A DNA stretch of 64,000 nt from an uncultured bacterium (lineage in GTDB: Bacteria; Omnitrophota; Omnitrophia; Omnitrophales; Abzuiibacteriaceae). The stretch spans positions 32,001-96,000 of the forward strand of contig CAYLXA010000008.1 of NCBI GenBank assembly GCA_964387845.1. The letters run 5' to 3'. Below the pieces are notes generated by a model. The model was not told where the DNA came from and searched no databases. It saw only the letters and a program-made list of their open reading frames with translations. The position numbers and the translations under genes were made by a program. Positions 3,561 to 50,700 of this stretch are shown one piece after another (the stretch's first letter is position 1; each line of letters starts with the position of its first letter).

Positions 3561-3653
3561 ATCCGGCAGCGAACAACGAACACTTGCGCAAATGCGCGAG
3601 TGCCATCTCGCGGGGCTTAAGGATAGCCCCGTCTCGATAGGAGGAGAATCAAA
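3557..3653 (+). promoter_or_regulatory. conserved 5' leader, copy A (upstream of 3654 gene)
   Basis: About 75% identical to copy B. It has the box CGAACACT..ATG.GCGAGTGCCATCTC, a hairpin (ggggct-taaggat-agcccc) and ATAGGAGGAG. It encodes a 21-aa uORF (3592..3657, MRECHLAGLKDSPVSIGGESK) whose TGA overlaps the main ATG. Confidence 0.55.
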
Positions 3654-4215: not shown

Positions 4216-4312
4216 ACAATCCGGCGGAGAAAGACGAACACTCACACATGATGTGCGAGTGCCATCTCTCGAGACTCAAAGAAGTCTCGTATCGATAGAG
4301 GAGGAATAAAAA
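4216..4312 (+). promoter_or_regulatory. conserved 5' leader, copy B (upstream of 4313 gene)
   Basis: It shares the GCGAGTGCCATCTC box with copy A. Its hairpin (gagact-caaaga-agtctc) has compensatory changes relative to copy A. It encodes a 16-aa uORF (4248..4298, MMCECHLSRLKEVSYR). Confidence 0.55.
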
Positions 4313-6190: not shown

Positions 6191-6192
6191 GT

Positions 6193-6245
6193 AATTGGGG
6201 TCAGTTCTTGAAAATTGAACGGCATTCAAAATTCAAGAATCGACC
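6193..6245. repeat. hairpin repeat, family 1 copy 1 (attggggtcagttcttgaa..ttcaagaa..gacc); likely terminator
   Basis: Imperfect palindrome immediately 3' of the 4313 gene. It is near-identical to 7786..7846. Confidence 0.6.
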
Positions 6246-6303
6246 TGAATAATCCGGCAAAATAAAAACAATTGCGGCAGCGGGAAAATAGGAGGAATAA
6301 AAA

Positions 6304-7770: not shown

Positions 7771-7785
7771 AGCGCGTTAATGAAT

Positions 7786-7846
7786 CATTGGGGTCAGTTC
7801 TTGAATTTTGAAGACCGTTCAATTTTCAAGAACCGACCCCAGTAAC
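7786..7846. repeat. hairpin repeat, family 1 copy 2; likely terminator
   Basis: cattggggtcagttcttgaattttgaagaccgttcaattttcaagaaccgaccccag lies 3' of the 6304 gene. The stem is 20+ bp. Confidence 0.6.
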
Positions 7847-9471: not shown

Positions 9472-9510
9472 GGGCAGTCCCAATTATCATTAAAACATTT
9501 GGGGCTGCCC
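9472..9510. terminator. hairpin repeat, family 2 copy 1 (gggcagtcccaatt..ttggggctgccc); probable terminator
   Basis: 12-bp stem 3' of the 7877 gene. Its second copy lies at 32717..32775. Confidence 0.55.
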
Positions 9511-17639: not shown

Positions 17640-17718
17640 GTCATCCTGAACGAAGTGAAGGATCTAAGTTCGTAGACCCTTCGCTCTGCTCAGGGTGACA
17701 GGAGTTGCTCAGGATGAC
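17640..17718. mobile_element. solo miniature copy (MITE-like) of the GIY-YIG element inverted repeats
   Basis: gtcatcctgaacgaagtgaaggatc + 11 nt + acccttcgctctgctcagggtgac + gctcaggatgac. The IR sequence and the partial terminal duplication match those flanking the GIY-YIG gene at 22509..22888. Confidence 0.6.
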
Positions 17719-21645: not shown

Positions 21646-22518
21646 ATGACTGCCAAACTTTTAGAAGGAAAAATCATAGCCGAAAAGCTGCAGAAGAAAA
21701 TTGCAGCAGAGGTGCGCGATCTGACGTCCAAAACAAAGCAAACGCCCAAAATGGTGGCAATCCGGATTAATGAAGACCAAGCCTCAGAGCTTTATTTGAA
21801 ATCACAGCGGAAAGCCGCGGAGCTTGCCGGCATGAAGCATGAAACGATTACGATTTTGGGTGCGACCGAAAGACAATTAATTCAGGCCATCGAAAAAGCC
21901 AATAAAGACGTATCCATTCATGGCATCATGATTCAAATGCCGCTTCCTCAGGATTTTCATCTCGAAAATATTTTGGATTCCATCGATCACAAGAAAGACA
22001 TCGAAGGCGTCACGAGTTTTAATTTAGGGCAATTGGTTCTCAAGAAAGACAAATTGGTTCCGTGCACGGCGCTTTCCTGCATCACTTTGATTGAAGAGAC
22101 AGGCGAGAAGCTGCGCGGCAAAGAAGCTGTGATCGTGGGCTCCAGCAAAGTCGTTGGGCGCCCGGTTTCGCTTTTACTTTTAGACCGGATGGCAACCGCG
22201 ACGGTTTGTCATATTGCGACTTCAGAAGCCGGGAAGCTTGAATCGCATGTGAAGCGTGCGGATATTTTGGTGGTGGCGGTCGGAAAAGAAAATGTAATTC
22301 CCGGGAAATGGGTCAAAGAAGGCGCGATTGTGATTGATGTCGGGATTAACCGTGTGAACGGAAAAACCGTGGGCGATGTGGAATTTGAAGAAGCAAAATC
22401 CAGAGCCAAATTCATTACGCCGGTCCCGGGCGGCGTGGGCCCAATGACGGTGACGATTTTAATGCACAATTTGGTAACGGCGTACAGGTGGCAGACAGAG
22501 AATGCGTCGTCATTCTGA
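21646..22518 (+). CDS. folD: bifunctional methylenetetrahydrofolate dehydrogenase / methenyl-THF cyclohydrolase FolD
   Basis: Start taken at ATG 21646 (MTAKLLEGKII...). Conserved FolD motifs are present (GxSxxVGxP, PGGVGPMTV). The last ~7 codons and the stop lie inside the element's left IR. Confidence 0.9.
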   Translation: MTAKLLEGKIIAEKLQKKIAAEVRDLTSKTKQTPKMVAIRINEDQASELYLKSQRKAAELAGMKHETITILGATERQLIQAIEKANKDVSIHGIMIQMPLPQDFHLENILDSIDHKKDIEGVTSFNLGQLVLKKDKLVPCTALSCITLIEETGEKLRGKEAVIVGSSKVVGRPVSLLLLDRMATATVCHIATSEAGKLESHVKRADILVVAVGKENVIPGKWVKEGAIVIDVGINRVNGKTVGDVEFEEAKSRAKFITPVPGGVGPMTVTILMHNLVTAYRWQTENASSF

Positions 22519-22888
22519 GCGTAGCGAAGAATCTCTGTTTCGATGAAGAAGGGTTACGTTTATTTGCTTGCGAACAAAGTTAACACTGTAATTTATATCG
22601 GAGTTACAAGCAATCTTGCAAAAAGAATTTGGGAACATAAAAAGAAGCTGGTAGAAGGATTTACAAAGAAATATAACGTAGACAAACTAGTTTATTATGA
22701 AATTTTCGAGTTAGTTGTTGATGCAATAAAAAGAGAAAAGCAAATTAAAGGTTGGGTCAGAAAAAAGAAAGTGGACTTAGTCGAATCACTTAACCCTAAT
22801 TGGAACGATCTATACAAGAACTTAAACGAATAAGATGTACGAGATCCTTCGCTTCGCTCAGGATGACGGGCGAAGGGTTCAGGATGAC
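22509..22888 (+). mobile_element. GIY-YIG mini-element: 25-bp imperfect terminal inverted repeats flanking a GIY-YIG endonuclease gene
   Basis: Left IR is gtcattctgagcgtagcgaagaatc (22509..22533). Right IR is gatccttcgcttcgctcaggatgac (22843..22867), followed by a partial duplicate cgaagggttcaggatgac. The element is inserted exactly between folD and panB. Confidence 0.7.
22543..22833 (+). CDS. GIY-YIG nuclease superfamily protein (96 aa)
   Basis: KGYVYLLANKVNTVIYIGVTSNLAKRIWEHK = GIY-(x10)-YIG with the conserved R and E residues. Confidence 0.85.
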   Translation: MKKGYVYLLANKVNTVIYIGVTSNLAKRIWEHKKKLVEGFTKKYNVDKLVYYEIFELVVDAIKREKQIKGWVRKKKVDLVESLNPNWNDLYKNLNE

Positions 22889-32275: not shown

Positions 32276-32665
32276 ATGAAACGCGTTCTCATTATCGATG
32301 ACGACAAAGATTATGCCGATCTTCTGATGATCCGGCTGAACCAAGCCGGTTACGAAGCCGAATGGTTCAACGGATGTGAAGCTGCGACACAACGCCTCGA
32401 TAAGAGCATGGATTTTGATGTGGTTGTCTTGGATGTTGAAATGCCGGAGAAAAACGGCATGGCCACTCTCGCTTACCTCAAAAATCATTTCAAAGCCCGA
32501 GGATTTAACAAATTCCCCATTCCCGTCATTGTCGCAACCGGCCTTCAAAGCCAGGAGCTCCGCGAAATTTTCCTCGATCAAGACGTCGCCGATTACATTC
32601 AGAAACCCTTCGATTCCTCCGTCCTCACCAAGAAAATCGAAAACATCCTCTCCAAAAATAAATAA
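32276..32665 (+). CDS. single-domain response regulator
   Basis: VLIIDDD...VVLDVEMPEKNG receiver motifs. Confidence 0.8.
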   Translation: MKRVLIIDDDKDYADLLMIRLNQAGYEAEWFNGCEAATQRLDKSMDFDVVVLDVEMPEKNGMATLAYLKNHFKARGFNKFPIPVIVATGLQSQELREIFLDQDVADYIQKPFDSSVLTKKIENILSKNK

Positions 32666-32677
32666 GTAAGTAAGCAC

Positions 32678-32931
32678 CCAAGGAGAGTGTTCCGTCGGCG
32701 CCGGCGTTCATTCGCTCCAGTCCCAATTGTCATCAAAGCCTTAAAGCGCTTATTTATAGGTGAATTGGGGCTGCCCTCACCTTCAAAGAAAATACAATGT
32801 AGGTGATGGGCTGCAGTGAATGCCGCCTGCCGCTCACTCATTGAACCCGCGCCACTTTGCTTCACGAAGTAAAGTGGCGGGGACCAAGCTTCAACGAGCT
32901 CCGAGAGCCGCCTTTGGAACACTCTCCTTGG
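32678..32931. repeat. MITE-like / structured element: 16-bp perfect terminal inverted repeats (ccaaggagagtgttcc ... ggaacactctccttgg) enclosing ~220 nt with internal hairpins, including family-2 hairpin copy 2 (32717..32775)
   Basis: Both TIR sequences were read directly. Internal hairpins include cgccactttgcttcacgaagtaaagtggcg and cagtcccaattgtcat...aattggggctgccc. It is GC-rich relative to its surroundings. Confidence 0.5.
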
Positions 32932-33151
32932 ATGCAGAAGGGCGGGAGTGAGCCGAGATGTTCTCCGGAGCGCCATTATTCGGAAAGATTGAAGGGCTCA
33001 ATCTTTCCGAATAGGCTGAGCACGGCAATTTTTGCTTAGGCAATACGCCTAAAAATTGCCGCGCGGAGGAAAGCGTAAGAGAAGCGTCTCGGCGAATGAC
33101 CTCATATTTATTCTTGAAGCAGTGCGTGTTTCATGCTTCAATAGCGGTCTC

Positions 33152-33490
33152 ATGAGCATTCAGGAATTCCCCGAAATAGAAACATTTCATAAGCTTCCGC
33201 GCAAAGTCATCGTCAAAGGCGGAAGTTCCGGCTTCTCCGCGCAAGGCAAACCTGAGCTTCGCGGTATCGTTATCAACAATATCGGCCATACCGTCAAGGA
33301 AGTCCGTGTATCGCTCATTATTTTCAACCAGGATGAAATTCCGGTTTTAAACACGAGCATATCCGCGGACCCCGAAATTCTGCAGCAGGGCGGTATCGGC
33401 TCGTTTACATTTACTTTGGATGATTACGGCAAAGAAATTACCAACTACTACCTCTATGCCAACTGGAAGTACGACGACTCAAACTGGTAA
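33152..33490 (+). CDS. hypothetical protein (112 aa)
   Basis: ORF from ATG 33152 ([14 protein letters not shown]...). It has no recognisable domain. Its 3' end overlaps the acs start. Confidence 0.4.
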
Positions 33491-35462
33491 ATCTAAAAAA
33501 TCCGAAACGATTGATTCGCTTCTTTCGGAAACACGCAAGTTCAAGCCTTCCGTTTCTTTTCAAAAATCCGCCTGGGTCAAAAGTTCTTCAATCTATAAAA
33601 CCGCCGGGAAAAATTCTCAGAAATTTTGGGAATCGTTTGCCCGAGAACTGGCGTGGTTTAAGCCCTGGAAAAAAACGCTCGAATGGAATCCGCCGTATGC
33701 GAAATGGTTTATCGGTGGAAAGATTAACGTGAGCTTCAATTGCGTCGACCGGTGGGCGCAGTCCAATGCACGCAATAAAGCCGCGATCATTTGGGAGGGC
33801 GAACCGGGCGATGAGCGGACCCTTACGTATTGGGATTTGTATAGGGAAGTTTCAAAATTTGCGAACGCTCTGAAATCACTTGGTGTTCGCAAAGGTGACC
33901 GGGTGGCGATTTATATGCCGCTTGTGCCCGAAGCCGCGATCGCAATGCTGGCTTGTACGCGGATTGGTGCGGTTCACAGCGTTGTTTTCGGCGGATTCAG
34001 TGCCGAAGCACTTCGCGACCGGATCAATGATGCCGAAGCGAAAGTTTTAATTACTGCTGACGGCGGATGGCGCCGGGGCGGGGTGATTCCGCTCAAGAAA
34101 TTTGCAGATGAAGCGTTGAAGGCTACGCCGAGCATCAAGCATGTTGTGATTTTAAAGCGCACGGGCACGGAAATTCATGTACAGGAAGGCCGCGATCATT
34201 GGTGGCACCGTTTGATGCAGGATGCGAAATCAGATTGCAAACCCGAGGCGATGGATTCTGAAGATATGCTCTTTACACTTTACACATCCGGCACAACGGG
34301 AAAGCCGAAAGGAATTGTTCATACAACCGGCGGCTATTTGACCGGAACTTACGCAACAACCAAATGGGTTTTTGATTTAAAGCCGGAAGATGTTTATTGG
34401 TGCACAGCCGATGTCGGCTGGATCACGGGGCACAGTTACCTGGTTTACGGCCCGCTTGCTAACGGCGCAACGGTTGTGATGTACGAAGGAAGCCCCGATT
34501 GGCCCGAAAAGGAACGTTTCTGGCGCATTATCGAAAAATACGGCGTCACGATCTTTTACACGGCCCCAACCGCGATTCGTACTTTTATGAAATGGGGCAC
34601 GGAATTTCCGGAGCGCTGCAATTTATCATCGCTCCGCCTTCTCGGAAGTGTCGGTGAGCCGATCAATCCCGAAGCGTGGATGTGGTATCACAAATATATC
34701 GGCCGCGGCAAATGTCCGATTGTCGATACCTGGTGGCAAACGGAAACGGGCGCCATCATGATTACACCGCTTGCGGGTGTCACGACACTCCGGCCCGGGT
34801 CAGCATCACGGCCTTTTCCTGGAGTTGAAGCAAAAGTGATGAATGAAGCAGGCGAAGAAGTCAAAATCGGTGGCGGTTATTTGGCGCTCACCAAACCTTG
34901 GCCGTCCATGCTGCGCGGTATTTTTAATGATCCGGAACGTTACGAAAAACAATACTGGTCCAAGTGGCCTCATCTCATTGGCACCAAGAAAAACGTTTAC
35001 TTTACGGGCGATGGCTGCAAAATCGACAAAGACGGTAATTATTGGCTGCTCGGACGCGTCGACGATGTGATGAATGTTTCGGGCCACCGGATTTCCACAA
35101 TGGAAGTTGAAAGCGCGCTTGTCGATCATCCGGCGGTTGCCGAATCGGCGGTCGTGAGCAAGCCGCATGACGTGAAAGGCGAGGGAATCGCCGCATTTGT
35201 GACGATCAAGGAAGGATTTTCTGCCAGTAAAGAATTAGTCAACGAACTAAAAGAGCATGTTGTCAAAAAAATCGGTTCACTCGCGCGCCCCGAAGATATT
35301 ATTTTCTCAGCCGACCTCCCCAAAACCCGCTCCGGCAAAATCATGCGCCGGCTCCTCAAAGATATAGCAGCCGGGAAAGTCCTGGGCGATACGACCACGC
35401 TCGCCGATCCTGGTGTTGTGGAGCGGCTTAAGCAATCCTACGCCGAAGATGCCGAATCTTAG
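33456..35462 (+). CDS. acs: acetyl-CoA synthetase (AMP-forming) Acs
   Basis: [18 protein letters not shown] and the C-terminal K...[11 protein letters not shown] motifs. No start codon exists after the upstream stop, so the start must be ATG 33456 or ATG 33420 (exact start uncertain). Confidence 0.9.
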
Positions 35463-35715: not shown

Positions 35716-38700
35716 GTGCGCAAAAAGCCATTTTTCATCAAAGCAATTGCCCTAGCGCTTTGCTTTACTTTTATCGCTACCGATACCATCGCTTATTCCG
35801 ACGCAGCTCAGACATCTCCGCAACTGGCGGAGATGCTGAAGCAGTCCTCGAACTGGTTGAGTTTGAGGGCCGCTACCATTTCGGGACTTTTCCGCAACGC
35901 CGCACCTTCTGTTTCCGGTACGCGTTTACCTGCCGCAGCTCCCAAGTTCGCCCGTTACTTGTCAGAACTTCGAAATGAAGCCAATGAAAAACCGGTTACG
36001 GCTGACTACATATCCGCTCAAACAATTCAGAATCAAAAAACCAATGAAATTACGCCTCCGCCTCAATCTGAATTACGCCAAGAGAAGCCCAGATTTAAAT
36101 CGCGGCACAGCTTTTTTAACCATGCCATACAGTTAAGCCGCAACTTATTCAAGCTTTCAGAGTGGAAACACCGGATTTTGAGATTGTCCAGCAGCTTCGG
36201 AAACCTTCCAGATGACATTCTGTTTCTAGTTACAACTCTTCCCATATTGATCGGAATATTGATAGTGGATGCTCTTGATAATTTTCATGATAACCCCAAA
36301 ACAAACGCAAGAATATGGTTCTGGGTTGTTACGAGTTCAGCGGTGTGGCTCTTCTCAGTGTTAACTGCCAATGTTGTTTTATTCAGATTTCAGAAACCTG
36401 CAAAAAGAAAATTGCCGGCAAAATCTGATCAGAAAGTTCAACGATCTGAATTGCGCGGCCATTCGGGCGTAGGGAGTTATGTCATTGGCGATTTGGAATT
36501 TAATAAAGGTGATCCAACCGGCTTTGAATTGATTAAACGGTTGATCGGAGAAGTAAGAGCAGGTCTTTTAACCGGCGAACTTCAAAAAGCCGGCTTGGAT
36601 CAAGATTCTATTTCACATATATTCCGGCTTGCTTCTTCGCCTAGTAAAAGTGCGCGCGAGCCAATTGGTTTCAAATACAGTGAAGCGGCCGGTCAGTTTG
36701 AGCTGATTAAAAATGATTTGCGCACCTATCTTCATCAGCTTCAGAAAACACAAAATCATGATCACGAAATCAATGTTTATGCGCTTGGGTTAGGCAATCT
36801 TCCGGTTGAAGCAGAGGAAGTCATCAAGTTGTTTCTGAACGTCATGGAAGAGGAGCTTGGCGAAGCAGCCAAAAATTGGTCTTTTAATTTTATCGGAATT
36901 GATTTTCAAGACGAACCCATCAAAGTCGCGCGAAAATACTTTGCAGAAGATATGGCTTCTCTAAAAGAAAAAGGATTCCGGAAAGTCACTTTACAAGCTG
37001 TGAAGGCAAACGCACTGTCATCTTCAGAGCTGACGCGGGTATTTGAAGAAACGGGTGGCTCTAAGAAAGCAGACTATTTATTTCATCGGCATGTGATGTA
37101 TGTAAACCGTGCTTCAAGTTGGTTAAATCAGCTTCGAGGCCTCACTCCTATCACGATGTTACGGCCTGTGCTTGCTGACGCGTTGGAGTCGTACCTTCAA
37201 TCACAGAATTTGATCGGCGCATTTACAAAAACAGGTACACGTTATGTTATTGAACCTCTCGCCAGCTCAGACCCAAGCATACGGGAAGTTGTCATTCCGG
37301 GATCCAGCGTTTTGCCGCAGGAAAATGGCGCAGCCGGCAGCGGGATTTATATTGTGAATGACCCCGCCGTTTTTACAGCAACCGGCTTCATTCAATATCT
37401 CCAGGATCAGCTTGGAGAAAATTTCTCCATCTCCGGCCCTCTTCGGGTCGATCGGACTGGAGGCCGGGGAGAGCTGCGCCGGGCTTCGAATTTTCATTTT
37501 GTAAACACAGTACGCAGAGTGTTGCGGCGGGAAATCGCCCAAATAGAAAAAGACAAGTGGCAAAACTGGGCAGTTGGTTTTGAGCCTGTGCAAGATGTTG
37601 CAAGCCACCTTGTCCGCGGTGCAAAGGGCGAGCTATGGATTCATTTGCACTTAACCTACCACGGACATGATAAACGTGCTCGTTTCGCCGAAAATGGCGT
37701 CTATGACTTGGGATTGCTTTTCCGGATAACCGATCGAGAGAATCAATTAACTCTTGATGCCCCCATGATTGAACCGCAAATAGGCCGGTCTGACTATTTT
37801 GCTTTTACACGCGCCGAAACGGTGCTTTCTTCCGAGCAGGCGGCCCGGCTTGTGAAGGAGGGAACGGAATTTGTCAATTCGCACGCCGGTCCGATCCGCA
37901 GTGCAATGCGTCTTGCCAAGAAAAAACCGAGCTCAATTCATAATCTATTGGGCCGTGCAGTATCGCCCCGGCACGCACGAGGCCTTTACAACATGATGAC
38001 ATTAGGGCATGAGGAAAAGCGTGTGATTGACCGTACAAAAAGGCGCTCGGTTACTTATCGGTTTGTGGGCAGCCGGCGAAGCGAGCTGCGTCAAAAATCG
38101 GAATTAGATTCGGCCCGAGAGTTTGTGGCTCACGCTATCCAAACCGGCCAATTGAAATTAGATCTGTTTGATCGGGGAAGGGAGCCTGCAAAACAAATTC
38201 TTCAGGAAGTTTTAGCTGAAAATCAAAAGCGAAAAACGGATCATATTCAAGAAGTCGAAACCGCAAGGCACAAAATAGCAACTTTCGAATCAAGGTTCAA
38301 AAAAATCCGTGATGAAATTGATTTTGACCCGTTTAAACCTCTGGCGCCGACGGAGCAGGAAAAAATCATGGAATGGTGGGCTGATGACCTGTACATGATG
38401 GAATATGAAATCAGAAATTATTTAGCCGAAATTCAGTCGGGGCAGCATCCGTTTTCAGGAAACGAATTGGATCAAGTAGTGGATGCTTTAATAGCCGCTT
38501 ACCGGTGGAGTATGGATGTTGTTGCTTTTTTTGAAAAACAAAAAGCAGAACTATTATTCTTTCGAAATCAAGAGACCACCGACAGCGAAGAGTCGGCCGA
38601 TACCATGGCGGCACTTTCAGGCGCATTTTCAGTTTTAGCCGACATCAAATCTCCGCGCGGACAAATCCCGGAAAATGTTTTTTTTGCCATAGCTGCAACC

Positions 38701-41700
38701 AAGCGCCACAAAGCGAAAGAATTTTTACTTTCTGTTCTTCGTGAGATTGGTTTCGATAAAACAAAATCCGAAACCCAGAAAATCGTGAGAGGAAGGGCGC
38801 TTAATTATCTGTTTGCCCACTTTCACAGCTCGGAACTTGCAGCACTGGCCCGGCAGGCAATTGAAAATTTAGGCAGAGAGCAAAGATTTGATTACGATGG
38901 CTGGGCATTTGATAGCGCGTTCATGGAACTTTTGCCTTATCTCGGAGATGAGAATGTTAAAGCGTATATTTTTAATTACTTAAAAGATGATTTTCAATTC
39001 GGAAAAGCTCTCGAAGCTGGGAACTGTTTGGAATACTTGCTGTTCGATTTAGAAACCGCGGAGGTCCCGGGTTGGTTTAAGGAGCGCTTGCAGATTTATT
39101 CGGAAAAAAATGCAGCGGCTATGGATGATTTTGGAATTACGGAAAATCAGGAAGCCTATTTAAATCGAATTAAAAAATTAAATGATTTTCTAGCTCTAAA
39201 AGAAGCCGGAATCGGGCTGCCGTCTTATCAATTTTCAAAATACGTTTTTCGGCCTATTCATTCACAGGATGAAATAGACACACTGCGCAAAATGAGCGGT
39301 TCATTTCCCGGACGACGCCCTGGTTGGAGCCCATGGGATATGACCGATTTTGTATTGGAAGATAGCAAGACCCGTCAAATTGTCGGAGGCGGCATGATTT
39401 CGGAGCATGACTACGACACAGAAGCGCACCATATTCATCTTGTTGCTCTGAGTGACCAGCTGCAAGGCCGGGATAGGGCAGATGCGTTTGTGTTTATTCT
39501 CGCCGGCATGTTGCAATCCATGTCGCCAAAAATCAAAGGCCGGAAAGTTGTTTGGCGCACATGGGTAAAAGATATTCTGGAAAAGACACTCGCGCTTGAT
39601 TTGGCGGGCGTTGATTTAGAACCTCTCATCAATCAAAACCCTGATGATGCACGCTCGGAATTGCTCAGTAAGCCTGAATCGCAGAATCCTATCCTCGAAA
39701 TCAATCAAGATTGGCGAAACATTTTTGATGACAACGCAAAACCGCTGGTGGTGGATGTCGGGTTCGGAAACGGAGAAACACTGCTTTACCGAGCACAGCA
39801 CGAGCCGGACAAAAATTTCATCGGTATCGAACTTCCCGAAGAGCCGTATGCGGATATGCTGGCTGAAAGGATTCAAACAGTGGGAATCAAAAACCTAAAA
39901 GTCCTCAAAGTGGCTGATTTTGAGGCATTTCGCACTCAACTCAAATTCGGGAACCAAGCAATCGTTTCAGAGCTAACTTATTACGATCCGTTTCCGGATA
40001 GTCCTTATGTATTTAGAGAACATACCGCTGATTTACAGCAAATTTTAAAACCCGGCGCGCTCGTTAAAATCATGGTTTTTGAACACGAATTTTGGCAAGA
40101 ACTGTCCGGCATTTTTGAATCCAACGGATTTCAAACGCTAAATCCTGCCGACCATGTTTTTGAGGATAATCATGATACGCAGGATTCAAATGAGGCATTT
40201 AGCACTCAACTGAAACTTATTTTCCGATGGCCCGGTCTATCATCAAATCGTTCCGAATTGCGCCAAGACCTCAAAATTCAGACGATTCTAAACGATATTG
40301 CCCAAAGCAGATTGATTTCGGAGAATCAGCCGGAAACTCGGTCTTTTTTTAATAGAATTTCGGATCGGTTAAAACAAAAATCAGTTTCCCAAACTTTCTT
40401 TTTGACCGGATTGTTACTTTCATCTTATGTCTATATTTTATTCGAGCGCTGGCTTGCTGCCGAGCCGGTCGAATCGAATGCTCAAGAAATAGCTGCCGCC
40501 ATTTTACTATTGGGCATTATTTCTACGATTTTTACCACGATCGTTAAGAGAATGAATAAGTCTAGTACATCCTGGCGCTGGGATGTTATTAGCTTTTCGG
40601 AAAATCAAATCATAGAAGATGCATTGACTTTTCTGGACCCTCACAAACATCAATTAAATCCCAATGTGGATATTATTGTTGAGAAAAGAAGCCACAGGTT
40701 TAAGCGTATTGCCATCGGATTTTTCAAAGAAAGTTTAAAAAATCTTGGCGCCGGTGCAATGTTTTTATTGATAGGAGGCTTTTTAGCTTGGAAAATTGGA
40801 TACGGCCTTCTTGATTTGTACAAGCAAGACCTGCACGCTGCATTTAAAGTCCCTGTCTATGGCATATTCGGCGCGGGGCTGATTGTGTTTGGTTTTGTGG
40901 GCATGATGGGATTTACCGTGCTTTTTCTATCTCCGTTCATTGCTCTTATGCAGGCTTGGGATGGAGAGTTTTCAGATAAGGGAATCGAGGACCAAAGAAT
41001 TTTTGTCCAGCACCAAGAATCCGAAGATGTTTTTTACGAGACGCTAGTTGAAGAATTAAATCACCGTTTCAAACTCCGCCGAGAGCCGCTTCCGGAGTTT
41101 CCAAAAACACTGGATGGTTTGCGGCTCGCCATGATACTCAAACGCTACGGCCTCCCCGGCAGTGAAATTGCGAATCGTTCCGCCTCCGGCCTCCTCCGGG
41201 TCTTGCGCCCTGAAGGGTCAGAGACCGCAGACCGTAACGCTCTCCGAGCCAACGGCTCGATGGAGCCGAGGGCACGGGGGGAACTTCGGCAGTCGGAACC
41301 TCGGAAGATGAGCAGGGCTGAGCTCGCCTCTTTATTCAGGGCGCAGCTACGCGAGGCGAATTTCATTGCATCGATACCGGTGTTGATACAACACGTATGG
41401 AATGTAATCGCCAAATTAGCAAAGCCCCTCAACTTCCAGTTTCGCGAACTAGGCCTAACGCAAGAGCTCCTCCGTTTGCAGACAGGGTTTTGGATCACCC
41501 GATTTGGGCCTGAAGACCGGATGTGGTGGGGACTCCGCGACGGCATGAAGTTCGGAGATACCGTTAATTGGTGGGGGCCTAAACAAAAAAGACCGGAGCC
41601 CCTGGGTTTTCATACCGGGATTGATTTTGTGATGTATCAAAATTTTCAAAAGGCCTGGAAAACAATTCCGGAAGGAACCGAAGTGCAGGCACTCTACGGA

Positions 41701-44700
41701 GGCACGGTGGTTTCCGTATTTCAAGACGACATGCAGAGCACCCTTGTTGTCAATCAAGAGATTACCGATACAGACGGAGGAAATACGCTGGTCACCATTT
41801 ATGCGCACATAGAGCCGGAAACTAACGTTCAGCCGGGCGTAAAAATTGAGGCTGGCGATGTCCTGGGCCGAATCAGGCGGTCGCGCAATGAGCGTTCGAT
41901 TGTTTCGCCTCATCTTCACTTATCGATCGGATGGGCAAAGCCCGAATTTTTTGAACGTCTCAAAAGCGACGGCGTCGATTGGCCGTTTGTGGATGCTTTG
42001 GCAAAAGAAGGCCTTCTGACTTATGTCGATCCGCTTACATTTTTGGATAAAAATGAAGCCGATCATTTTTTTATGAATGCCCAGCACAACAAATTAAAGA
42101 AAATTCTGATTCTAAATACACAGCCAGGCGCTCAATTTTTTCTGACCCGGCAAGTGATTGAAAAACAATTTCCCGGTGTCACGACACTCGCTGTAAGAAG
42201 TTTTGAAGAAGCGCAGAAAATTTTAAATGACCCGTCCAGCGAAATTGATGCGGTAGTCCGTGTTGACGAATCGGCATCAATCAGTTTCCCTAGAAAATAT
42301 TTAAAACGCACGGCCGTTTTAGATTATCAAGAAAAAAACAAAAGAGAATTCTTACGCCAACTGCATGTCGTGAATGTGATCGGCCGCTTGTATCACGAAC
42401 CGATCAGCCGTCTCAACATTCGCTACCGGCTTCAGCGGCGCATCCGTCAGGCGGGAATCCGGACAGTGGGGCAATTGGTTGACCTTGCCAACCTGCCGAA
42501 GAAATTTCGAAAGTTTACAACGGGCCTTTCTAAAGTTCCGGAGGGCCTTGAGCGCCGTTTGCAAGGCTCTCGCTACAAGGATGAGATCATCCGCGCAATC
42601 GTCTCTGTCCAGCCCCAGGCCATTCTGACACGCTCCATTTTGCACAGGCGGTCGCTTGGATTTTTCCAAATGGCGTACCGACTCACATTTGGATTTGAAT
42701 ACCATCCCGAGACGCGCAATTTTGCGGAGCTGATTTTATTCTTAAATGGTTTATCCGGCAGTGTTTTCAAAGAGCTGGTCAAACAATTTGACGTCCATAT
42801 TCAAACCGATTTAATCGATATTTTGCAGCGTGTTGCTCGGATTGCGCCCGAAGCCATTTCTGTCAACGTTCTGGAGATGTTTATCGATGACGAAGAGACT
42901 CCCAAGCGCATGCGCGAAAATTTCAATACCCTGGCAGATTTAATTCACATGGCAAGGAATGATACCAAACGGTTTAAGGAGATTTTTGGATATCAAATTT
43001 CATGGCATGTTTTGCTCTTGCTTCTTGAAATTCTTTACGATGCGGTTCCGGGAGAAATCATGTGGCAGGAATGGCCTGACCTTGTCCACACCGTTCTGAA
43101 TCCGCACAATCTTCCACGCACATTCGGCAGCGGCGGGTTAAGCGGGCATATCAACGCTTACTCAGCGGCCATTCAAGCACATTGGCGCCGGTTGATGGCG
43201 GAGCATAAGGGATATGCAAAAAGAAAAGACCGCTCAGAACTTCGGCAGGCGGGAGATCGGCAAATTTTCCAGAGGGCATTTCAGGGAATTGCTTTCGGTG
43301 GATATGGAGCGGGGCTTATTGCTGCGACTTGGCAGATGCTTACCGTTTATCCGCAAATGTTGAGGCCGTCCTTATTTGTGATTCTGCTTACCTGGAATTT
43401 CTATCAGATCGTGAAACTAATTCTCAAGCAGCCGTTTGTCAGTCAGGAAAAGATAAACCAAGAAAAGTATATTAACCGCCAACTTATCATTACCCATTTG
43501 CCGCAGCTTGGACTCATCAAGGCGCACATGCTAGCACCGTGGCTTGAGGCTTTTATGCAAGCGCCGGAAGTTGGGGCCTTGTTTTTGACGGTCTCCGGTT
43601 TGCTGGTTTCAAAATTGGCCTTTGACAGCTATCTGCGCAATGACGGCAGAGCATCGGGAAGGTCCGAATTGCGCACCAATGACCCGGAAGAGCCGAATGC
43701 CAAAAATCCACGCACGTCTACTTACGAGACTATTATCTCTAACCGCCCGCAAATGAACCCAACTGAAAGTAATACTGAACAAGCAAGCCTGTTCATGGCA
43801 CCGCTTGAAAACGTAACACCGGATGCGGTCCGGTGGCTTGACCGAGTGTTTAATAGCCGGCTTCCGAAGGGCCAGTATGTTTTTGTCGGTGTTGTTGTCG
43901 ATCGCAAAAGCAAAGACATCCAGGCTTTTCAGGATGGCGTTTACATGATTGCAAAATTTCTGGAAGTCGGCGGCGCATTTGAAGAAATCGGATTGAACGA
44001 GATCAAAAATAAAAAACTTCGCCGCAGAATCACGGCCGTCGGCAAAGGATCGTCGGTGCGCGTGATCGAATTTGCGAGTGTCGGCGGGGGCGATGATTAT
44101 GAAATTCCGCTGCGCCGCCTTCAGGGTGTAGTGGAAGATTATTACAGCAATGAACCGATTGTCTGGATCCCGATATCACCGGAAGGAGAACTTTCAAGCA
44201 CATTGGGCTGGAAGCCCAAAAACCGGGCTTTTCATTTGACGTTAGTGCATCAGGCACCGGAGCAAGAGCCGGAGGCGCGCTCTGAGCTTCGCAATGATGG
44301 TGGAATTATTCTTGAAGCCGGACAGCAAATCAAAGCGGTTGAAGGTTATCAAATGCAGCTTCAAGAAAACGGTAGCGTTGCATTTTACCGTGAACGGTTA
44401 AGCAGCCCTGAGCCGGACCCTGTTGAGGTAGTCAAACCCACCATGGCCGGCATGCCTGTTTATGATGAAGCAGGCAATATCATGGGCTATGTTGGCATCA
44501 CACATGACTTTGAAGGCCAAGGGGAAGATAGAAAATTAATTGCAAGAACCGCATTTTATCCGGAGCCTGAATTTGATATTGAGAAAACGCATGTGCCGTC
44601 TACATGGCCTGCTTGGGAGCTGCTCAAGGCGGTTGGGCTTTTGATTCCAAAAGAGGACGCGCATATTCTAAAAATTGAAGACATCAGCCAAACATCTGAT

Positions 44701-47700
44701 TCAAAAATTCACCGGATTACGGTGCGCGTACCGGAAGAGCAGAGTTTTCCGCTTCGCGGTATTGAAATTCTAGCACGCGAATTAATTGAGAATCCATCCG
44801 CTGAACAGCAGTTTGATCTTGTTTACAATGAGAAAGGACATTTGTTGGCTGTATTTCCCGTTTTTGGAAATGAAAATAGGGCCGCTGCGGAGGATGGCTT
44901 ATTTCTTGATGTCAGTCCGTACTATTTTGAAGTTCCGAAGGACATTCGAGGAGAGTCGAAACTCCTGATAGATCAATTTTTGCGCGAGTGGAGACAAAAC
45001 CAACAGCATATCCAAGCCTATCAAAAAAAGCATTTCGGTTCTAATCGGATGAATTTCTGGCATTTTAGTTATAACAATGACGAAAATAATGATGAAGATA
45101 ATAAAGAGGAGCCTCTTTATCAGTTTTATCATTTACTTCATAGTCACGGCCATGATCTTAGTTATTTGGGGGAAGTTGAAGTTCAATCTTTGGAGCATAT
45201 TTTTTACTACGTTAGTAAAGATCCGGATAGGAAAATGTTATTGTTACCAATTTTCCCAACGGTCTTCCCGCCATCCGGCGATCCCCAGCACGACACGGAA
45301 TATCATAAGGCTATTTTGATCGATCCCAGATTTGATTTAAATGAGAATCAGCGGACTCTTGTGGTAGGTTCCGGAAGCGGATTTGACACATGGCTTGTTT
45401 CCCTCAAAACACGCAAGACCGTGAGTGTAATTGACATTAATCCACTGGCGGTAGCCAACACAAAAGCGCTTGCGAAAATTGCAGGCTTCAAAGTTTTAGC
45501 TAGAACGGCTGACAATATCGTCGATGAAAGCGGAAAGCCCACTTTTCCAGATGCCCGGTTTGATCGAATTATTTGGAATATGCCCGAGCATGTTGAAGGT
45601 GATGGGCCCAGCCACGGGCAATTAGCAACCCAAAGGACCAAGTGGTATTTAACAGATCATTGGGATGGCGACGTCGATGGTTTCAGCTTGACCCGGTTTG
45701 CTTCAGGGCTTTGCGACATTTTAAATCCTGACTCGCGCGTTTTAATTTGGAATTCGAATAACGAAGATTCAATTTTGAATGCCTTTGAAAACCGCGGCAT
45801 GGAAGTTGAACGTGCAGGCCTCAATTATCGGTACAGTTTGTATTTTATTCAACCATCTGCCGCTGCAGGCGAGCTTTTGGAACCGATTTCTAACTCTGCA
45901 GATCAACGAAGCGAACCTCAAAAACACATTGCCGTGCTTCAACGGTTCAAGCACAATCCGACCGGATTTATGGGGTGGCTCAAGAACGAAATCGCCGAAG
46001 TTTTGACAATCATTGACATGCCGAGCGGTCAGTTTATGAAACTGCCTGATGCGGAAAGAAGGAAGAAAAATCAACGTATTGAAAACGCAATTTCCATGCT
46101 TTACGGCGTAGAAGATTTTATTTCGGCTAAAGATGCGGCAAAAATTATCAAGAATATTGACGAGGCACGCCGCATGTTGGACGAGATTTACCAAATGTCC
46201 GAATGGCGTAAAAATGATTTTTCCGCTATCCGCGGAGGGAAGCAAGATTCCAAACTTCCGGCAAGCACCGAGCAAGCGTGGCACGCACGGGATATTTTTA
46301 ACGAATTTCTTCCGAAAAATGGGCTAGGAGAAGCGCTTCAGAAATACACGGGGGATAAAAAAGTATTGGATACCGCAGCGGAGAAATGGCTGCCTGTTTT
46401 TACGCGCGTTCCGAAACATTTATTCATGCCGAAATATTTGCGGCAGGATGCTTATTTGCATGATGCGCCGTACCGAATCGGTTATGGCCAGACAATCTCA
46501 CAACCGTCTCTGGTTGCATTTATTCTGGCGCTGCTTGATTTAGAGCCCTCGGATGAAGTTTTGGAAGTCGGCGCAGGCAGCGGATGGTTGGCCGCGCTGA
46601 TGTCGCAGCAAGCGGCGCATGTCTATGCGACAGAACTCATTCCGCAGCTTGCGGGCCGTGCGGAGCGGGTGATTGAGAATATGGGAATTCAAAATGTCAG
46701 CATTGTTGAAGCCGATGGTTCGGTTGGTTATCCACAGGCGGCTCCGTTCGATAAAATCGTCGTTTCAGCCGGCAGCCCCAATGTTCCGGAACTGCTTGTG
46801 AACCAGCTCCGCGAAGGAGGCTTGCTGATCATTCCGGTTTTGGATCCTGCAGCGTCAAAAAAGCAGAAGTCTTACAAGCTGACATTATTTGTGAAAGAAG
46901 GCGGTAAATTGACAGAAAAACTTGCCATCGATAGGGTTAATTTTGTTGATCTGCGCGGTGTGCACGGTTGGCAGCCGGCGCCAAAACGTTCCGAGCTTCG
47001 CCGAGCCGCACAGCCGAAAGATTCAAACAGTGAAAAATCAACGCCGAAGCCCGAGACCGAGTCAGACCGGCGCATCATCCGGGCAGTTAATTATTTTCTG
47101 AAAGAAAAGAGGCCATTCAATCAAGGCGATATCGCCAAAAAAGCAAGAGTCAGCTTGCAAACGGTTACAAACCGGAAGCACGCAAATCCGTCGATCGCTC
47201 GGTTTGTTGATTGGGCCCTGGAGAAAGCGCCTAAGGCTGAGCCTAAATCCGTTCAAGCTCTAATCCGGGCCGCAAAGCAGTTGAAAAAAGAAGGAAAATC
47301 GGGCGTGACCAATTCAGTTGTTGCGGACCTAGCCGGTTATCATCCACAAACCGTTACCAGCATAAGCAAGTTATATCCTAAGGTAAAACAAGCTGTGCAG
47401 GGGGCGCGTCAATCTCCGCACGCACAGATTTCTCCCACGATTCAGAAAGTTGTGGATGTTATTAAAGCGGCCGCGAAGAAAAAACAAGTGTTTCAAAACG
47501 AAGGCCAAATCGCGCAAGCAGCCGAAATCAGGCCTGAAACGTTGAGCCGGATTAAGAAGCGGCGGTCCTCCTATCGGGAACCATTTCTCCAACTGCTTCA
47601 ATACGCCGTAAGCGACCCGGACCGTGCGCTTGAGATCATTAAAAAACACTTCTCGATTCATTCCGAACAGCGGGTTTCTGTCCAAGCATCCGCTCAAGAC

Positions 47701-50700
47701 GAGAACTTGAGGTCGGAACTACGGGCTGACGGTGCTATCCAAGATCCGGGCATGGTCGTTACGGCTTTGATCGGGGTAGCCGCATTCGGAATCCTGATTT
47801 TTGGTTTTGATTCAGTCCGAGAGCGGGCATTTAAAGTTGGAAGTGCTGCACTCAAATTGATCCGCCGACTCTTCTGGCTATGGACCGGTGTTTTGTGGAT
47901 TTCCACCCATTTGGCTTACGCTGCTCATCGTGTCCGCCCGGATTCTCAAGATAAAATTTACCAAGCAACAGGTTTTGACCCCGGCGATCTAAATTATTCA
48001 GAGTTTTTGTATCCATGGGCTATTTTTACCGTGTTTATTTATCCCGTTGCCGCGTTCGGCTTGATGCGTTACCTGAATCGCTTGGTCATGCGCCGAAACG
48101 TTCTGCCATTCGAAACTTCGCCCTCAAGGTCCATTCCGGCTCACCCTACAACGTCCGAGTTAGATATTAATCGGAAAGTCGGGACGGCCCAGCCTTCCGA
48201 TCAATATTCAAAAGATCCTTTAATGAAAGGCAGGGCTGAACTCAGAGCGTCGGGTTCGAATCCCAAGAAGAAAGACACAAGTAAAGCAACGGACTTGGAA
48301 AAAAGGTTTAAGGAACTTTTGGAAGAGGCAGATAGAACGCTTGAGGCAAACAAACAACTTGAGGATGGACTTGATGAAATCCACAAAGTGCTGCCGGAAT
48401 TACCCAAAGACATCATCGATGGACGCTCCGAGCTGCGCCAATCTGACCCGATTGGCACTGCTTCGGCTTTGCCAGGCCCTCTGGCAAAGTCCGAGCTGCG
48501 CAATTTCTTGCCGAATCAGAACCCGATCAACCGTTTGGACGCCAAGCAAGGTTCCGGAATTGGTGCACGGGGCAACGTTTTGGAAGGCCGTTCCGGATCA
48601 AATTCTGAGTTTTATAATTATCGGGGCGAAAAAGTACTTGTACTGCCGACTAGCACCGCAAAAGGAATATTAGGTTTGGGTGATTTTATCGTTGTGATGC
48701 CACGCCCCAAGCCCGGCACGCAAGATCACATTCTCTTTTATAATTCGTCCGGCAGTTTGTTGTTTGAAGCAGTGAACGTTTCAGACTATTCGTTAGTAGG
48801 AGAAAATATGGCCATTAAATTTGCCAACGGCAATATCCAGTTTTATGACAAGACAGGCAAGAAGCTACTTAGTTCATTCGATCATTTTTCAAACTTTCAC
48901 CCAAGCCAAATTGACTTACAGGGCGATTTATTGGTATTTAAAAAATCAAGCAATGAGGTTGGTTTTTATAATTCGACAGGTTCACTTATTTTACGAAAGT
49001 CAAAAGGCACTGATTTTGACAGTTTTTATGTGAAAGGTTCATTTATCGTATTGGTTAAAAAAGATAATCACCATGTCTACAGTGGGCTTACAGGTAAGCT
49101 GATTGCAAAAACCCAGGCAAGCGTGGGTGAAACCGCGCAATTTGACGGCGACTTTTTTGCTGTGGTTAATTGGAATGAATTTACATTCTATAATCTTCAA
49201 GGGAAAAAAATTCTTGAGAAACGAACAGGTTCAGGTGACGATAATTTTATTAACTGGTCCGGCGAAGGCGGCCTTTTGACTTTTGATAAAACACATTCCC
49301 GGACGTTTTACGATGAAAACGGGAAGTTATTAGCTGCCATCCAAAAGCGTGTATTCGCTTCCAGAGTTGTCAACAAAGTGTTGCGCTTAGAAGACAACGC
49401 TGATTTTTATGAATGGTACGATTTCAGCCCTAATGCGTTATCGGCGTCTTCAAAAGGACAAAAATCGCTTGATCAAATTTTTAGCCATAACCCGGCCATG
49501 CTCTCGCGGATCCGGGATTATGTAAAAAGAAGGTACGATAATCCGCTCATGTCGCGCGAAGAGCCGAACCACGATCTTTCATCCGACCTGGATGACGCAT
49601 CGAATTTGATTCAATTGGAAAAAATGCCAACCGAATGGATTGACGACCTCTCATCCTTGGTTTTAACCGGTTACAATCCGTCGGACAAGGGCGCGCGTTC
49701 AATTTTAAAGGAAGCCGCGATTCAGCTTGGATTGATTCAAGCTCCGTCATCTCAAACGAAAGAAGCGGTTCCCATTACCTATAACCAAAAAGCGCTTATG
49801 CGGATCTTAAGCAGCGGTGTCATTACGGAAGCCATCCGAAACGGGCAATTTTCCTTTCCAACAACAGGTAAGAGAAGTAGTCTTATTTTTCTTTCTGACG
49901 ATGGAACCAATGTAAAGAGGATTGATGAAACGGATTCTGCTAAAGCCAACGTGCAGCTCGAATTTTATCTGTCGAGCGATAATCGCACAGTGGGTGTGTC
50001 CATCAGTGTCCGAGATGATAATAAGGCAAGTGGGTGGCGAGTACAGCATGAAGAACCTAAGCAACTCAAAGATCTTCAGACATCCATTGAACCTGCAAGC
50101 TCGAAACCCTCGTTGACTATTGTTAGCGCGAGAAAACAACGCACCCTTGATGAATTGATAAACAAAGTGAGCAAGTTCCCAGGTTGGAGCAATCCTGGCC
50201 CTTCAACATATTCTTTCGCTCATCAGGCAACGCAGATATCTGCTTTCTATACCGGAATTGTCCCTAACTTGCAACCACGCTGGGCATGGCATTTAAAAGT
50301 GATCTCGTCTGGTTATAACCTAAGCGTTGTTGTTGAAGATCATATTCAATCGCCAGGGAAATGGATAACGGTAGTTAAATTTAATAACTCCGGAAGTAAT
50401 AATTCTGTGGCCTCGCAAGAATGGGGTAACCATCTGATCGATATTGAACAAAATGGTTTAAAAACAAATATCTACATGACGAAGGCTTATGTGGATTCTT
50501 TGGTCAAAAACAGAATCCCGCTTAAAGGTGCAACTATAGATGGAGTTGAGTGGGAATTTATTCCGATCAATCCGAAACAAATTCTTCCGGCAAAATCAGA
50601 ATTGAGAACCCAAGCAGAGCAGGTTTCTATAGAAACGCTGGATGCGGCGCTTTCGGTGGAGCCCAAAGCACAAAACAGGTTGGATGCCGTCATTCATGAA

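Follow-up and report, generated by a model that had tools for sequence, protein, structure and literature searches.

What occupies the long intergenic spacer between a response regulator gene and the gene for a 112-amino-acid (aa) protein in an uncultured bacterium of the Omnitrophota? A first-pass annotation of the window, the 64,000-nucleotide (nt) stretch of contig CAYLXA010000008.1 analysed here, had drawn attention to a 254-nt segment of this spacer bounded by perfect 16-base-pair (bp) terminal inverted repeats (TIRs), and had read it either as a MITE (miniature inverted-repeat transposable element) carrying a repetitive extragenic palindrome (REP) or as a structured small RNA of about 250 nt closed by a long-range helix. 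Comparison with related loci indicates that this segment is one part of a larger non-coding element of approximately 435 nt, whose predicted two-domain fold is retained in a second lineage through compensatory changes. Our tentative reading, which we would place a little short of even chances, is that the element is an accessory structured non-coding RNA gene, most likely encoded on the minus strand, opposite to both of its neighbours.

The inverted repeats themselves are as first described: CCAAGGAGAGTGTTCC (32678-32693) and GGAACACTCTCCTTGG (32916-32931) are exact reverse complements standing 222 nt apart, and pairing of the arms reaches 20 positions, 32674-32693 with 32916-32935, across one C/A mismatch that becomes a G.U pair on the minus strand. 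By an arithmetic estimate, approximately 0.006 perfect 16-mer inverted repeats within 400 nt would be expected by chance in 64 kb, and scanning the window together with about 50 related loci returned only a handful of inverted repeats with arms of at least 16 nt, every one of them intergenic. Both of the additional interior hairpins are present, one within 32847-32882 (32847-32863/32866-32882; 17-nt arms, 88%) and the other within 32718-32773 (32718-32728/32763-32773; 11-nt arms, 91%). The latter had been called a second copy of a hairpin at 9472-9510, which holds for the stems, as both arms are common to the two (CAGTCCCAATTRTCAT and TTGGGGCTGCCC, exact in each), but not for the loops, which differ. 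Likewise, the interior had been described as GC-rich, and its GC fraction does exceed that of the flanks, though only modestly (0.52-0.575 versus 0.45-0.49). The minimum free energy (MFE) of 32670-32940 is -124.7 kcal/mol (z -8.7) for the plus strand and -128.3 kcal/mol (z -8.3) for the minus strand, and none of 200 dinucleotide shuffles matches the folding energy of this segment. An independent Logan assembly of the same organism and locus (L001) is identical to the window across 601 nt, and the element is therefore no assembly artefact.

The extent of the element follows from the same locus in six lineages of the window's own clade, with 112-aa proteins 84-95% identical to that of the window. 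The spacer between the regulator and the 112-aa gene measures only 45-71 nt, and lacks the element, in L003 (and its duplicates), L070-72 and L073; the element is also absent from L074, whose spacer of 162 nt owes its additional DNA to an unrelated palindromic repeat. In L010, whose 112-aa protein is 84% identical, this site is occupied by a homologous element with the orientation that it has in the window. Alignment of occupied with empty sites assigns approximately 435 nt of extra DNA to the window and approximately 340 nt to L010, while the final 45 nt or so before the ATG of the 112-aa gene are native spacer common to all lineages. On the minus strand, the region from 33130 to 32660 folds at -203.9 kcal/mol (z -9.2). 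The element and the sequence adjoining it are placed as follows.

32669..33103, minus strand: whole non-coding element, about 435 nt, with boundaries from the occupied/empty comparison good to about 10 nt
33104..33122, no strand: AT-rich native spacer, ATATTTATTCTTGAAGCAG, adjoining the right end of the element

A consensus fold of the window and L010 on the minus strand comprises 96 pairs in 13 helices, all of which are paired in both sequences. Seventeen of the 96 pairs are changed on both sides with none broken, as compared with 8.4 +/- 2.0 in shuffles and 0-1 when the partners are slid by 1-3 columns; compensatory substitution of this kind is what is looked for in a structured non-coding RNA of generic type. 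The two sequences share identical blocks of 13-20 nt that are separated by compensatorily changing helices, and unpaired blocks are conserved as well as the stems. The helices fall into two folded domains, and what had been taken for TIRs is the closing helix of the 3' domain. The 5' domain (minus strand, 33093 to 32952) is a three-way junction of its closing helix with hairpins H1 and H2, and the 3' domain (minus strand, 32935 to 32674) is closed by the 20-bp helix P1 and contains P2 and P3, the latter with a variable tip. Listed in minus-strand order, the predicted parts are these.

33087..33093, minus strand: partner arm of the 5'-domain closing helix, TCTCGGC, from the consensus fold
33012..33080, minus strand: H1 module, with an 18-bp hairpin at 33020-33064
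32977..33013, minus strand: H2, a perfect 16-bp hairpin (helix 6), covarying with L010
32952..32958, minus strand: 5'-domain closing helix, GCCGAGA, pairing with TCTCGGC at 33087-33093
32936..32951, minus strand: interdomain linker, from the alignment and the consensus fold
32916..32935, minus strand: one arm of P1, containing the right 'TIR' (32916-32931), covarying with L010
32884..32900, minus strand: partner strand of P3, CCAAGCTTCAACGAGCT, a 17-nt block identical in the window and L010
32847..32882, minus strand: variable tip of P3, the cgccactttgcttcacgaagtaaagtggcg hairpin of the first-pass annotation, which in L010 has another sequence and length and is still a hairpin
32832..32847, minus strand: one strand of the long helix P3, GCTCACTCATTGAACC, pairing with 32884-32900
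32815..32827, minus strand: 3' arm of P2 (as mapped on the plus strand), GTGAATGCCGCC, from the consensus fold
32718..32811, no strand: nested insert of about 95 nt in the P2 loop, absent from L010, from the alignment gap
32703..32716, minus strand: other arm of P2, GGCGTTCATTCGC..., pairing with 32815-32827
32674..32693, minus strand: left arm of P1, containing the left 'TIR' (32678-32693), covarying with L010
32654..32673, minus strand: T-rich tail after P1, TTACTTACTTATTTATTTTT, overlapping the stop codon of the regulator

Compensatory change is distributed over both domains. P1 with its outer extension has six double changes relative to L010, and its arms change from CCAAGG/CCTTGG in the window to GAGCGG/CCGCTC in L010; H2 changes from GATTGA/TCAATC to GCTTGA/TCAAGC, and the closing helix of the 5' domain (helix 1) has two double changes, its L010 counterpart being GCGGAAGT/ACTTCAGC. 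In P3 (helix 11), the two blocks of highest conservation, 32832-32847 and 32884-32900, are paired with each other; it has 13 pairs with four one-sided changes, none of which breaks a pair on the minus strand. The P2 arm at 32703-32716 lies within a 20-nt block, GCGCCGGCGTTCATTCGCTC, that is identical in the window and L010, and the P2 loop, only 6 nt long in L010, holds in the window the nested insert, which consists of two hairpins (32718-32728/32763-32773 and 32774-32782/32801-32810). The REP that had been suggested to ride inside the segment is thus found as this insert in the P2 hairpin loop. H1 is recognisable by its conserved G.U pair together with a bulge of 4 nt and, on its 5' side, a pyrimidine-rich flank of 16 nt. 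A conserved GAGTGAGC (32946-32953; GCUCACUC on the minus strand) straddles the junction of the linker with the 5'-domain closing helix; its complementarity to part of a P3 strand could possibly allow an alternative pairing. The T-rich tail after P1, whose counterpart in L010 is ...AATTCTTTTT, could act in termination. Just before the first helix the minus strand has a TAAATA (33110 to 33105) that weakly recalls a -10 site, a resemblance that is speculative.

The element is also constrained at the level of sequence. It is 69% identical between the window and L010 over 345 aligned columns, whereas the third codon positions of the adjacent 112-aa gene are 47% identical, and it is more conserved than synonymous sites. 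No clear locally raised similarity of the kind expected from recombination was seen beside the element in the same pair of loci. Coding sequence does not account for its conservation, as none of the six reading frames stands out between the window and L010, all being conserved to the same low degree. Two coding candidates were considered and rejected: a small protein gene, on the evidence of the frames, and a remnant of the GGDEF-HD gene that stands at this position in other lineages, as no translated similarity was found. A spurious 125-aa open reading frame (ORF) on the minus strand, compared with 1.84 billion representative proteins as a probe for further copies of the element, returned two weak multi-segment matches (E 1.8e-6 and 7e-4) that were provisionally taken as spurious.

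Because the copies in the window and L010 share site, orientation and homologous flanks, we argue that they are orthologous by descent; the alternative, two independent insertions at the same site, would require extreme target specificity. If they are orthologous, the structure would have been kept by selection over the long term in two lineages and lost from four. L073 retains a 9-mer, AACATCTCG, which lies at the right end of the L010 element and may be a deletion scar, in keeping with old presence followed by loss. As four sister lineages do without it, the element is dispensable. The spacer is usually shorter than 130 nt in 42 more distant Omnitrophota genomes, reached through their homologs of the 112-aa protein, and none of these has the element. 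In all, only three sequences carry any part of it, the two orthologous copies and one further locus with a single shared module.

That third locus, L023, is from a metagenome-assembled genome placed by GTDB in the Omnitrophota, with a 112-aa protein 68% identical to that of the window. H1 and its 16-nt pyrimidine-rich 5' flank, the only part of the element also present there, were found at L023 5310-5378 with nhmmer and then with a covariance model. The model for H1 (R3) scores 90 bits in the window, 87.9 bits in L010 and 84.3 bits in L023, and across the three sequences all 18 pairs of the hairpin are paired, six of them with double changes. In L023, H1 lies in a 405-nt spacer between acs, the acetyl-CoA synthetase gene, and hemL, on the same strand as those genes, where other genomes have 18-70 nt. 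This spacer shows a two-domain layout like that of the window, each domain being closed by a long-range helix: in the first, a 17-nt helix encloses H1 and a perfect hairpin, and the second is closed by another long-range helix (z -7.3). A candidate homology between the 3' domain of the element and this second domain was not supported, as the corresponding model (R2) gave 4.8 bits (E ~7). The orientation of H1 relative to the acs operon is opposite in L023 and the window, and in L023 H1 is downstream of acs; given this difference, a single cis-regulatory role appears unlikely.

Several features distinguish the two strands. The consensus fold is more stable on the minus strand (-119.8 kcal/mol) than on the plus strand (-107.2 kcal/mol). 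At the two R positions of GCTCRCTCRTTGAACC, L010 has G, which pairs with C. The window has A there, which makes A.C if the plus strand is folded but U.G if the minus strand is, so that only a minus-strand P3 is unbroken in both sequences. The P1 extension likewise pairs through its mismatch only as a minus-strand G.U, and H1 keeps its G.U in three of three sequences, where the other strand would have A.C. In L023, the strand corresponding to the H1 sense folds better by 12.5 kcal/mol. Judged from these folding models, the minus strand would probably be the RNA strand.

An RNA gene at this locus would be read from the minus strand through the 5' domain, then the 3' domain closed by P1 and then the T-rich tract, the P2 loop in this genome having taken up a repeat-derived insert of about 95 nt. 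From the sequence we infer its transcription, its strand, its start and stop, and a free-standing mode of action, the last in preference to a cis-acting leader because its orientation to the neighbouring genes differs between the window and L023. Such an RNA might serve as a scaffold for protein binding, or might act through its conserved pyrimidine-rich single strand. Of the two first-pass proposals, the structured RNA closed by a long-range helix has fared better: its helix exists and shows covariation, although the unit exceeds the proposed size, at approximately 435 nt in two domains, and its strand is likely to be minus.

A number of observations weigh against an RNA gene. Covariation in two orthologous sequences and one module has little statistical power, and it was evaluated in the very sequences from which the structure had been derived. 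G.U accounts for only 4-7% of pairs, and there are several helices of 16-20 bp without a flaw; long perfect helices with so few G.U pairs look more like DNA palindromes than like typical bacterial RNAs. The strand assignment is countered by single-sequence folding energies that are equal on the two strands (-202.5/-201.0 kcal/mol for the window and -154.6/-153.3 kcal/mol for L010), by the similar number of G.U pairs that the prediction for each strand recruits, and by the nested hairpin at 32718-32776, which has its wobble on the plus strand. A scan of 32400-33400 on both strands found no consensus sigma-70-type promoter and no terminator; the T-rich tract follows a helix, P1, whose arms stand 222 nt apart, which is not the arrangement of an intrinsic terminator. 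Homology of the whole unit beyond H1 is unproven, because R2 misses the second domain of L023. Presence in two of six close lineages is patchy, as expected of mobile repeats, and the genome does contain palindromic repeats: matches to the GTCATYCTGAGC palindromic family number seven in the window, where 0.48 would be expected. H1 itself has a weak likeness to one perfect palindrome in L017, which belongs to the GTCATCCTGAGC family (R3, 25.8 bits, E ~1e-4). Finally, unrelated hairpin-rich inserts occupy the same spacer in L020, L021, L022, L027 and L074, four of which are placed as follows in their own loci.

L020, 2792-2942: insert closed by a perfect 20-nt long-range inverted repeat
L021, 530-740: insert with four hairpins
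L022, 2861-2963: insert closed by a perfect 17-nt long-range inverted repeat
L027, 2460-2885: extremely structured insert, about 430 nt long (z: plus strand -11.8, minus strand -14.2; MFE between -215 and -230 kcal/mol)

The L027 insert lies between a GGDEF-HD gene and the 112-aa gene, is unrelated in sequence to the window element and has no Rfam match, and in L074 it is the GTCATYCTGAGC family (283-370) that fills the spacer where the window has its 435-nt element. Structured insertions appear to have a hot spot in this spacer, upstream of the 112-aa/acs operon.

These observations lend themselves to a second explanation, in which the element is a nested mosaic of small palindromic modules, similar to REPs, BIMEs and REPINs or to foldback MITEs, that insert into spacers and into each other's loops. 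Its closing helices would then have arisen without a dedicated RNA function, and would provide at most a generic transcript-end or insulator structure. Nested insertion is visible in the P2 loop, where L010 has no insert and where both stems of one inserted hairpin recur at 9472-9510. A mosaic would further account for a distant locus, L023, that has H1 in common with the window and is otherwise unrelated in the sequence of its spacer; for the 25.8-bit likeness of H1 to the L017 palindrome; for the abundance of the GTCATCCTGAGC family in the window, with seven matches where 0.48 would be expected, which include inverted repeats flanking a small ORF; for unrelated hairpin-rich inserts at the same spacer in five other lineages; for patchy presence with intact empty sites; and for near-perfect helices that are equally stable on both strands.

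Against a mosaic stands the preservation of the element. The two copies occupy the same site in the same orientation in lineages close to saturation at synonymous sites (47% identity), yet none of the 13 helices is broken, 17 pairs show compensatory changes and the element is 69% identical. A dead insert at one locus should have decayed, and the intact helices therefore count against this explanation, as do the conservation of unpaired blocks and the extreme target specificity that independent insertion at one site would need. Long-term upkeep of a complex fold at one orthologous locus would be hard to explain for a dead repeat. Moreover, no second copy of the 16-mer TIR was found in the 64-kb window with up to three mismatches, and nhmmer and covariance models found no second element there; in approximately 345 kb of related loci the element was absent apart from L001, L010 and the H1 module of L023, and H1, which occurs once in the window, had no further copy in either set. 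REPs, BIMEs and REPINs are recognised as short high-copy palindromes, whereas the hairpins of the element have stems of 11-20 bp in nested, branched domains, and the only one with a second copy, at 9472-9510, is the nested hairpin 32718-32776. We regard a mosaic as a serious contender that is nonetheless somewhat doubtful. Repeat modules may well have supplied the parts of an RNA gene, so that the two explanations are not fully exclusive.

Searches beyond these loci added no copies. The conserved 20-base block CCAAGCTTCAACGAGCTSCG has six matches in the JGI metagenome collection, all high in GC and unrelated to the element, which look by eye like a pyruvate dehydrogenase E1-type coding region. 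In viral contigs, the P2 20-mer and the H1 pattern each gave zero matches, and the TIR 16-mer gave eight single chance matches. No further members of the clade were recovered by means of the response regulator protein, and in the P0078 search the contig ends before the acs-hemL spacer.

A third explanation keeps a function in RNA and moves it to the plus strand, as a cis-acting structure at the 3' end of the regulator operon, in the 5' leader of the 112-aa/acs operon or both, where its role would be that of a terminator, an insulator or a regulatory leader. With both neighbouring genes read from the plus strand, read-through between them would make a plus-strand RNA, which in single-sequence predictions folds about equally well; the U.G wobbles of the hairpins at 32718-32776 and 9472-9510 are also on this strand. 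On the other hand, the consensus fold is worse on the plus strand, P3 of the window would carry A.C mismatches, and H1 of L023, which is found downstream of acs, has the reverse orientation with respect to the acs operon. No terminator-like site and no match to a riboswitch or leader family in Rfam 15 was found, and most relatives manage with a spacer of 16-130 nt at this site. Taken together, we consider a plus-strand cis-acting RNA improbable.

A classical 254-nt MITE, that is, a non-autonomous element with 16-bp TIRs recognised by a transposase and flanked by target-site duplications, would fit the perfection of the repeats over 16 bp, a size in the MITE range and the presence/absence polymorphism at the locus, but is scarcely credible: no direct repeat surrounds the 254-nt unit, whose flanks, GCAC and ATGC, are inverted and continue the helix; the polymorphic unit is approximately 435 nt, with the 16-bp repeats internal to it; the arms covary between the window and L010 and are not conserved in sequence, which argues against TIRs bound by a transposase; and the TIR is single in the 64-kb window, with only the single chance matches among viral contigs. 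For the 435-nt unit, the sole candidate target duplication is TAAT in L010, which is not found in the window and is too short to count.

We also compared the element with described RNAs and repeats. Rfam 15, whose models include riboswitches, 6S, RNase P, tmRNA, SRP, OLE, GOLLD, ROOL, group I/II introns and ribozymes, gave no match that reached the gathering score, whether in the window or among 15 related loci. With E values up to 10, the region 32400-33500 returned only four chance-level matches, all to eukaryotic families; ARAGORN found no tRNA and no tmRNA. OLE, GOLLD, ROOL, HEARO/omega RNA and raiA are large structured bacterial non-coding RNAs with no assigned function. The element is like them in its size of several hundred nt, its multiple domains and long-range closing helices, its variable inserts in peripheral loops, its narrow and patchy distribution and its discovery by comparative intergenic analysis. 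It is unlike them in lacking any Rfam 15 match at E up to 10, in the unusual perfection of its helices, in being represented by three examples and in having no adjoining IscB/TnpB or reverse transcriptase gene. It is possible, and we hold this with somewhat less assurance than the RNA gene itself, that the element represents a previously undescribed Omnitrophota-specific class, namely a two-domain RNA of approximately 340-440 nt with its own transcription unit antisense to its neighbours, the H1 module as its signature and peripheral loops that tolerate repeats.

Among repeats, REPs are 20-40 bp in length and usually present in more than 100 copies per genome (PMC2817692, PMC3116915, PMC3733652). 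The element resembles REPs, BIMEs and REPINs in being intergenic, hairpin-forming, modular or mosaic, patchy and self-nesting, and it differs from a REP in being approximately 435 nt long, multi-branched and single-copy in the sequence searched, with the structure of an orthologous copy kept over long divergence. Correia, ERIC, RPE and bcr1, which are examples of MITEs in bacteria, measure 100-400 nt and have TIRs (PMC10969869). The element is similar in its inverted repeats, strong predicted folding, intergenic position and presence/absence polymorphism. It departs from MITEs in having no target-site duplication, in inverted repeats that are internal and covary, and in that multiple copies were not observed in the sequence searched.

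The window contains other repeats as well. The hairpin at 9472-9510, GGGCAGTCCCAATT...TTTGGGGCTGCCC, lies downstream of an ORF ending at 9457; it shares its stem arms with 32718-32776, both have the U.G wobble on the plus strand, and the two may belong to a low-copy family of palindromic repeats or terminators. A small ORF at about 22544-22834 on the plus strand, within 22509-22888, is flanked by inverted repeats of the GTCATYCTGAGC family (GTCATTCTGAGCGTAGCGAAGAATCTC / GAGATCCTTCGCTTCGCTCAGGATGAC). By eye this ORF looks GIY-YIG-like, and together with its repeats it resembles a small selfish element with a repeat family of its own. More units of the GTCATYCTGAGC family lie in the spacer 17640-17718, and the family also occurs in L017 (1129-1192 and 5546). 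Separately, a 65-nt palindromic sequence is present at 6188-6252 and 7781-7845 (78% identity), each copy standing just after one of two neighbouring ORFs, and a 32-nt direct repeat, 3592-3623 and 4251-4282 (81% identity; ATGCGCGAGTGCCATCTCGCGGGGCTTAAGGA), lies approximately 30 nt upstream of two consecutive ORFs and may be a shared regulatory motif.

The element sits in a spacer of 486 nt between two plus-strand genes.

32276-32665, plus strand: response regulator gene, the last of a run of two-component genes, with its stop codon TAA at 32663-32665
33152-33490, plus strand: gene for the 112-aa protein, with ATG at 33152 and no Pfam match

The 112-aa gene is followed by acs and then by an ORF of 5181 aa, all on the plus strand. 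The organism belongs to Candidatus Omnitrophota, and the 112-aa protein has 288 homologs, which appear to be from that phylum throughout. The gene stands directly upstream of acetyl-CoA synthetase in each locus inspected, at times overlapping it. The giant ORF (35716-51261) lies between acs and a hemL-like aminotransferase gene and is also found in the closest relatives (5133 aa in L003); in distant genomes acs is followed by the aminotransferase and the ORF is absent. In the native upstream region of the 112-aa gene there is an inverted repeat, CTTGAAGCA / TGCTTCAA(T), at 33114-33141. A TTGAAG-17 nt-TTCAAT arrangement lies a few bases 5' of the ATG and a Shine-Dalgarno sequence is not visible, and given these two features the mRNA of this gene may be nearly leaderless.

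Omnitrophota are uncultivated, ultra-small and probably host-dependent bacteria, and a literature search found no work on non-coding RNAs or repeats of this phylum. Complex structured bacterial RNAs of several hundred nt are rare, and new classes have each tended to point to new biochemistry. Given the small sample, the finding is a lead rather than a result, and what it would mean depends on which of the two better explanations applies. If the element is a mosaic of hairpin repeats, nested palindrome insertion would imitate a multi-branched RNA with 'terminal inverted repeats', a warning for genome scans, and the spacer upstream of the 112-aa/acs operon would be an insertion hot spot across the phylum. 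If it is instead an RNA gene, it would found a new family for which the window, L010 and L023 provide a clear test set.

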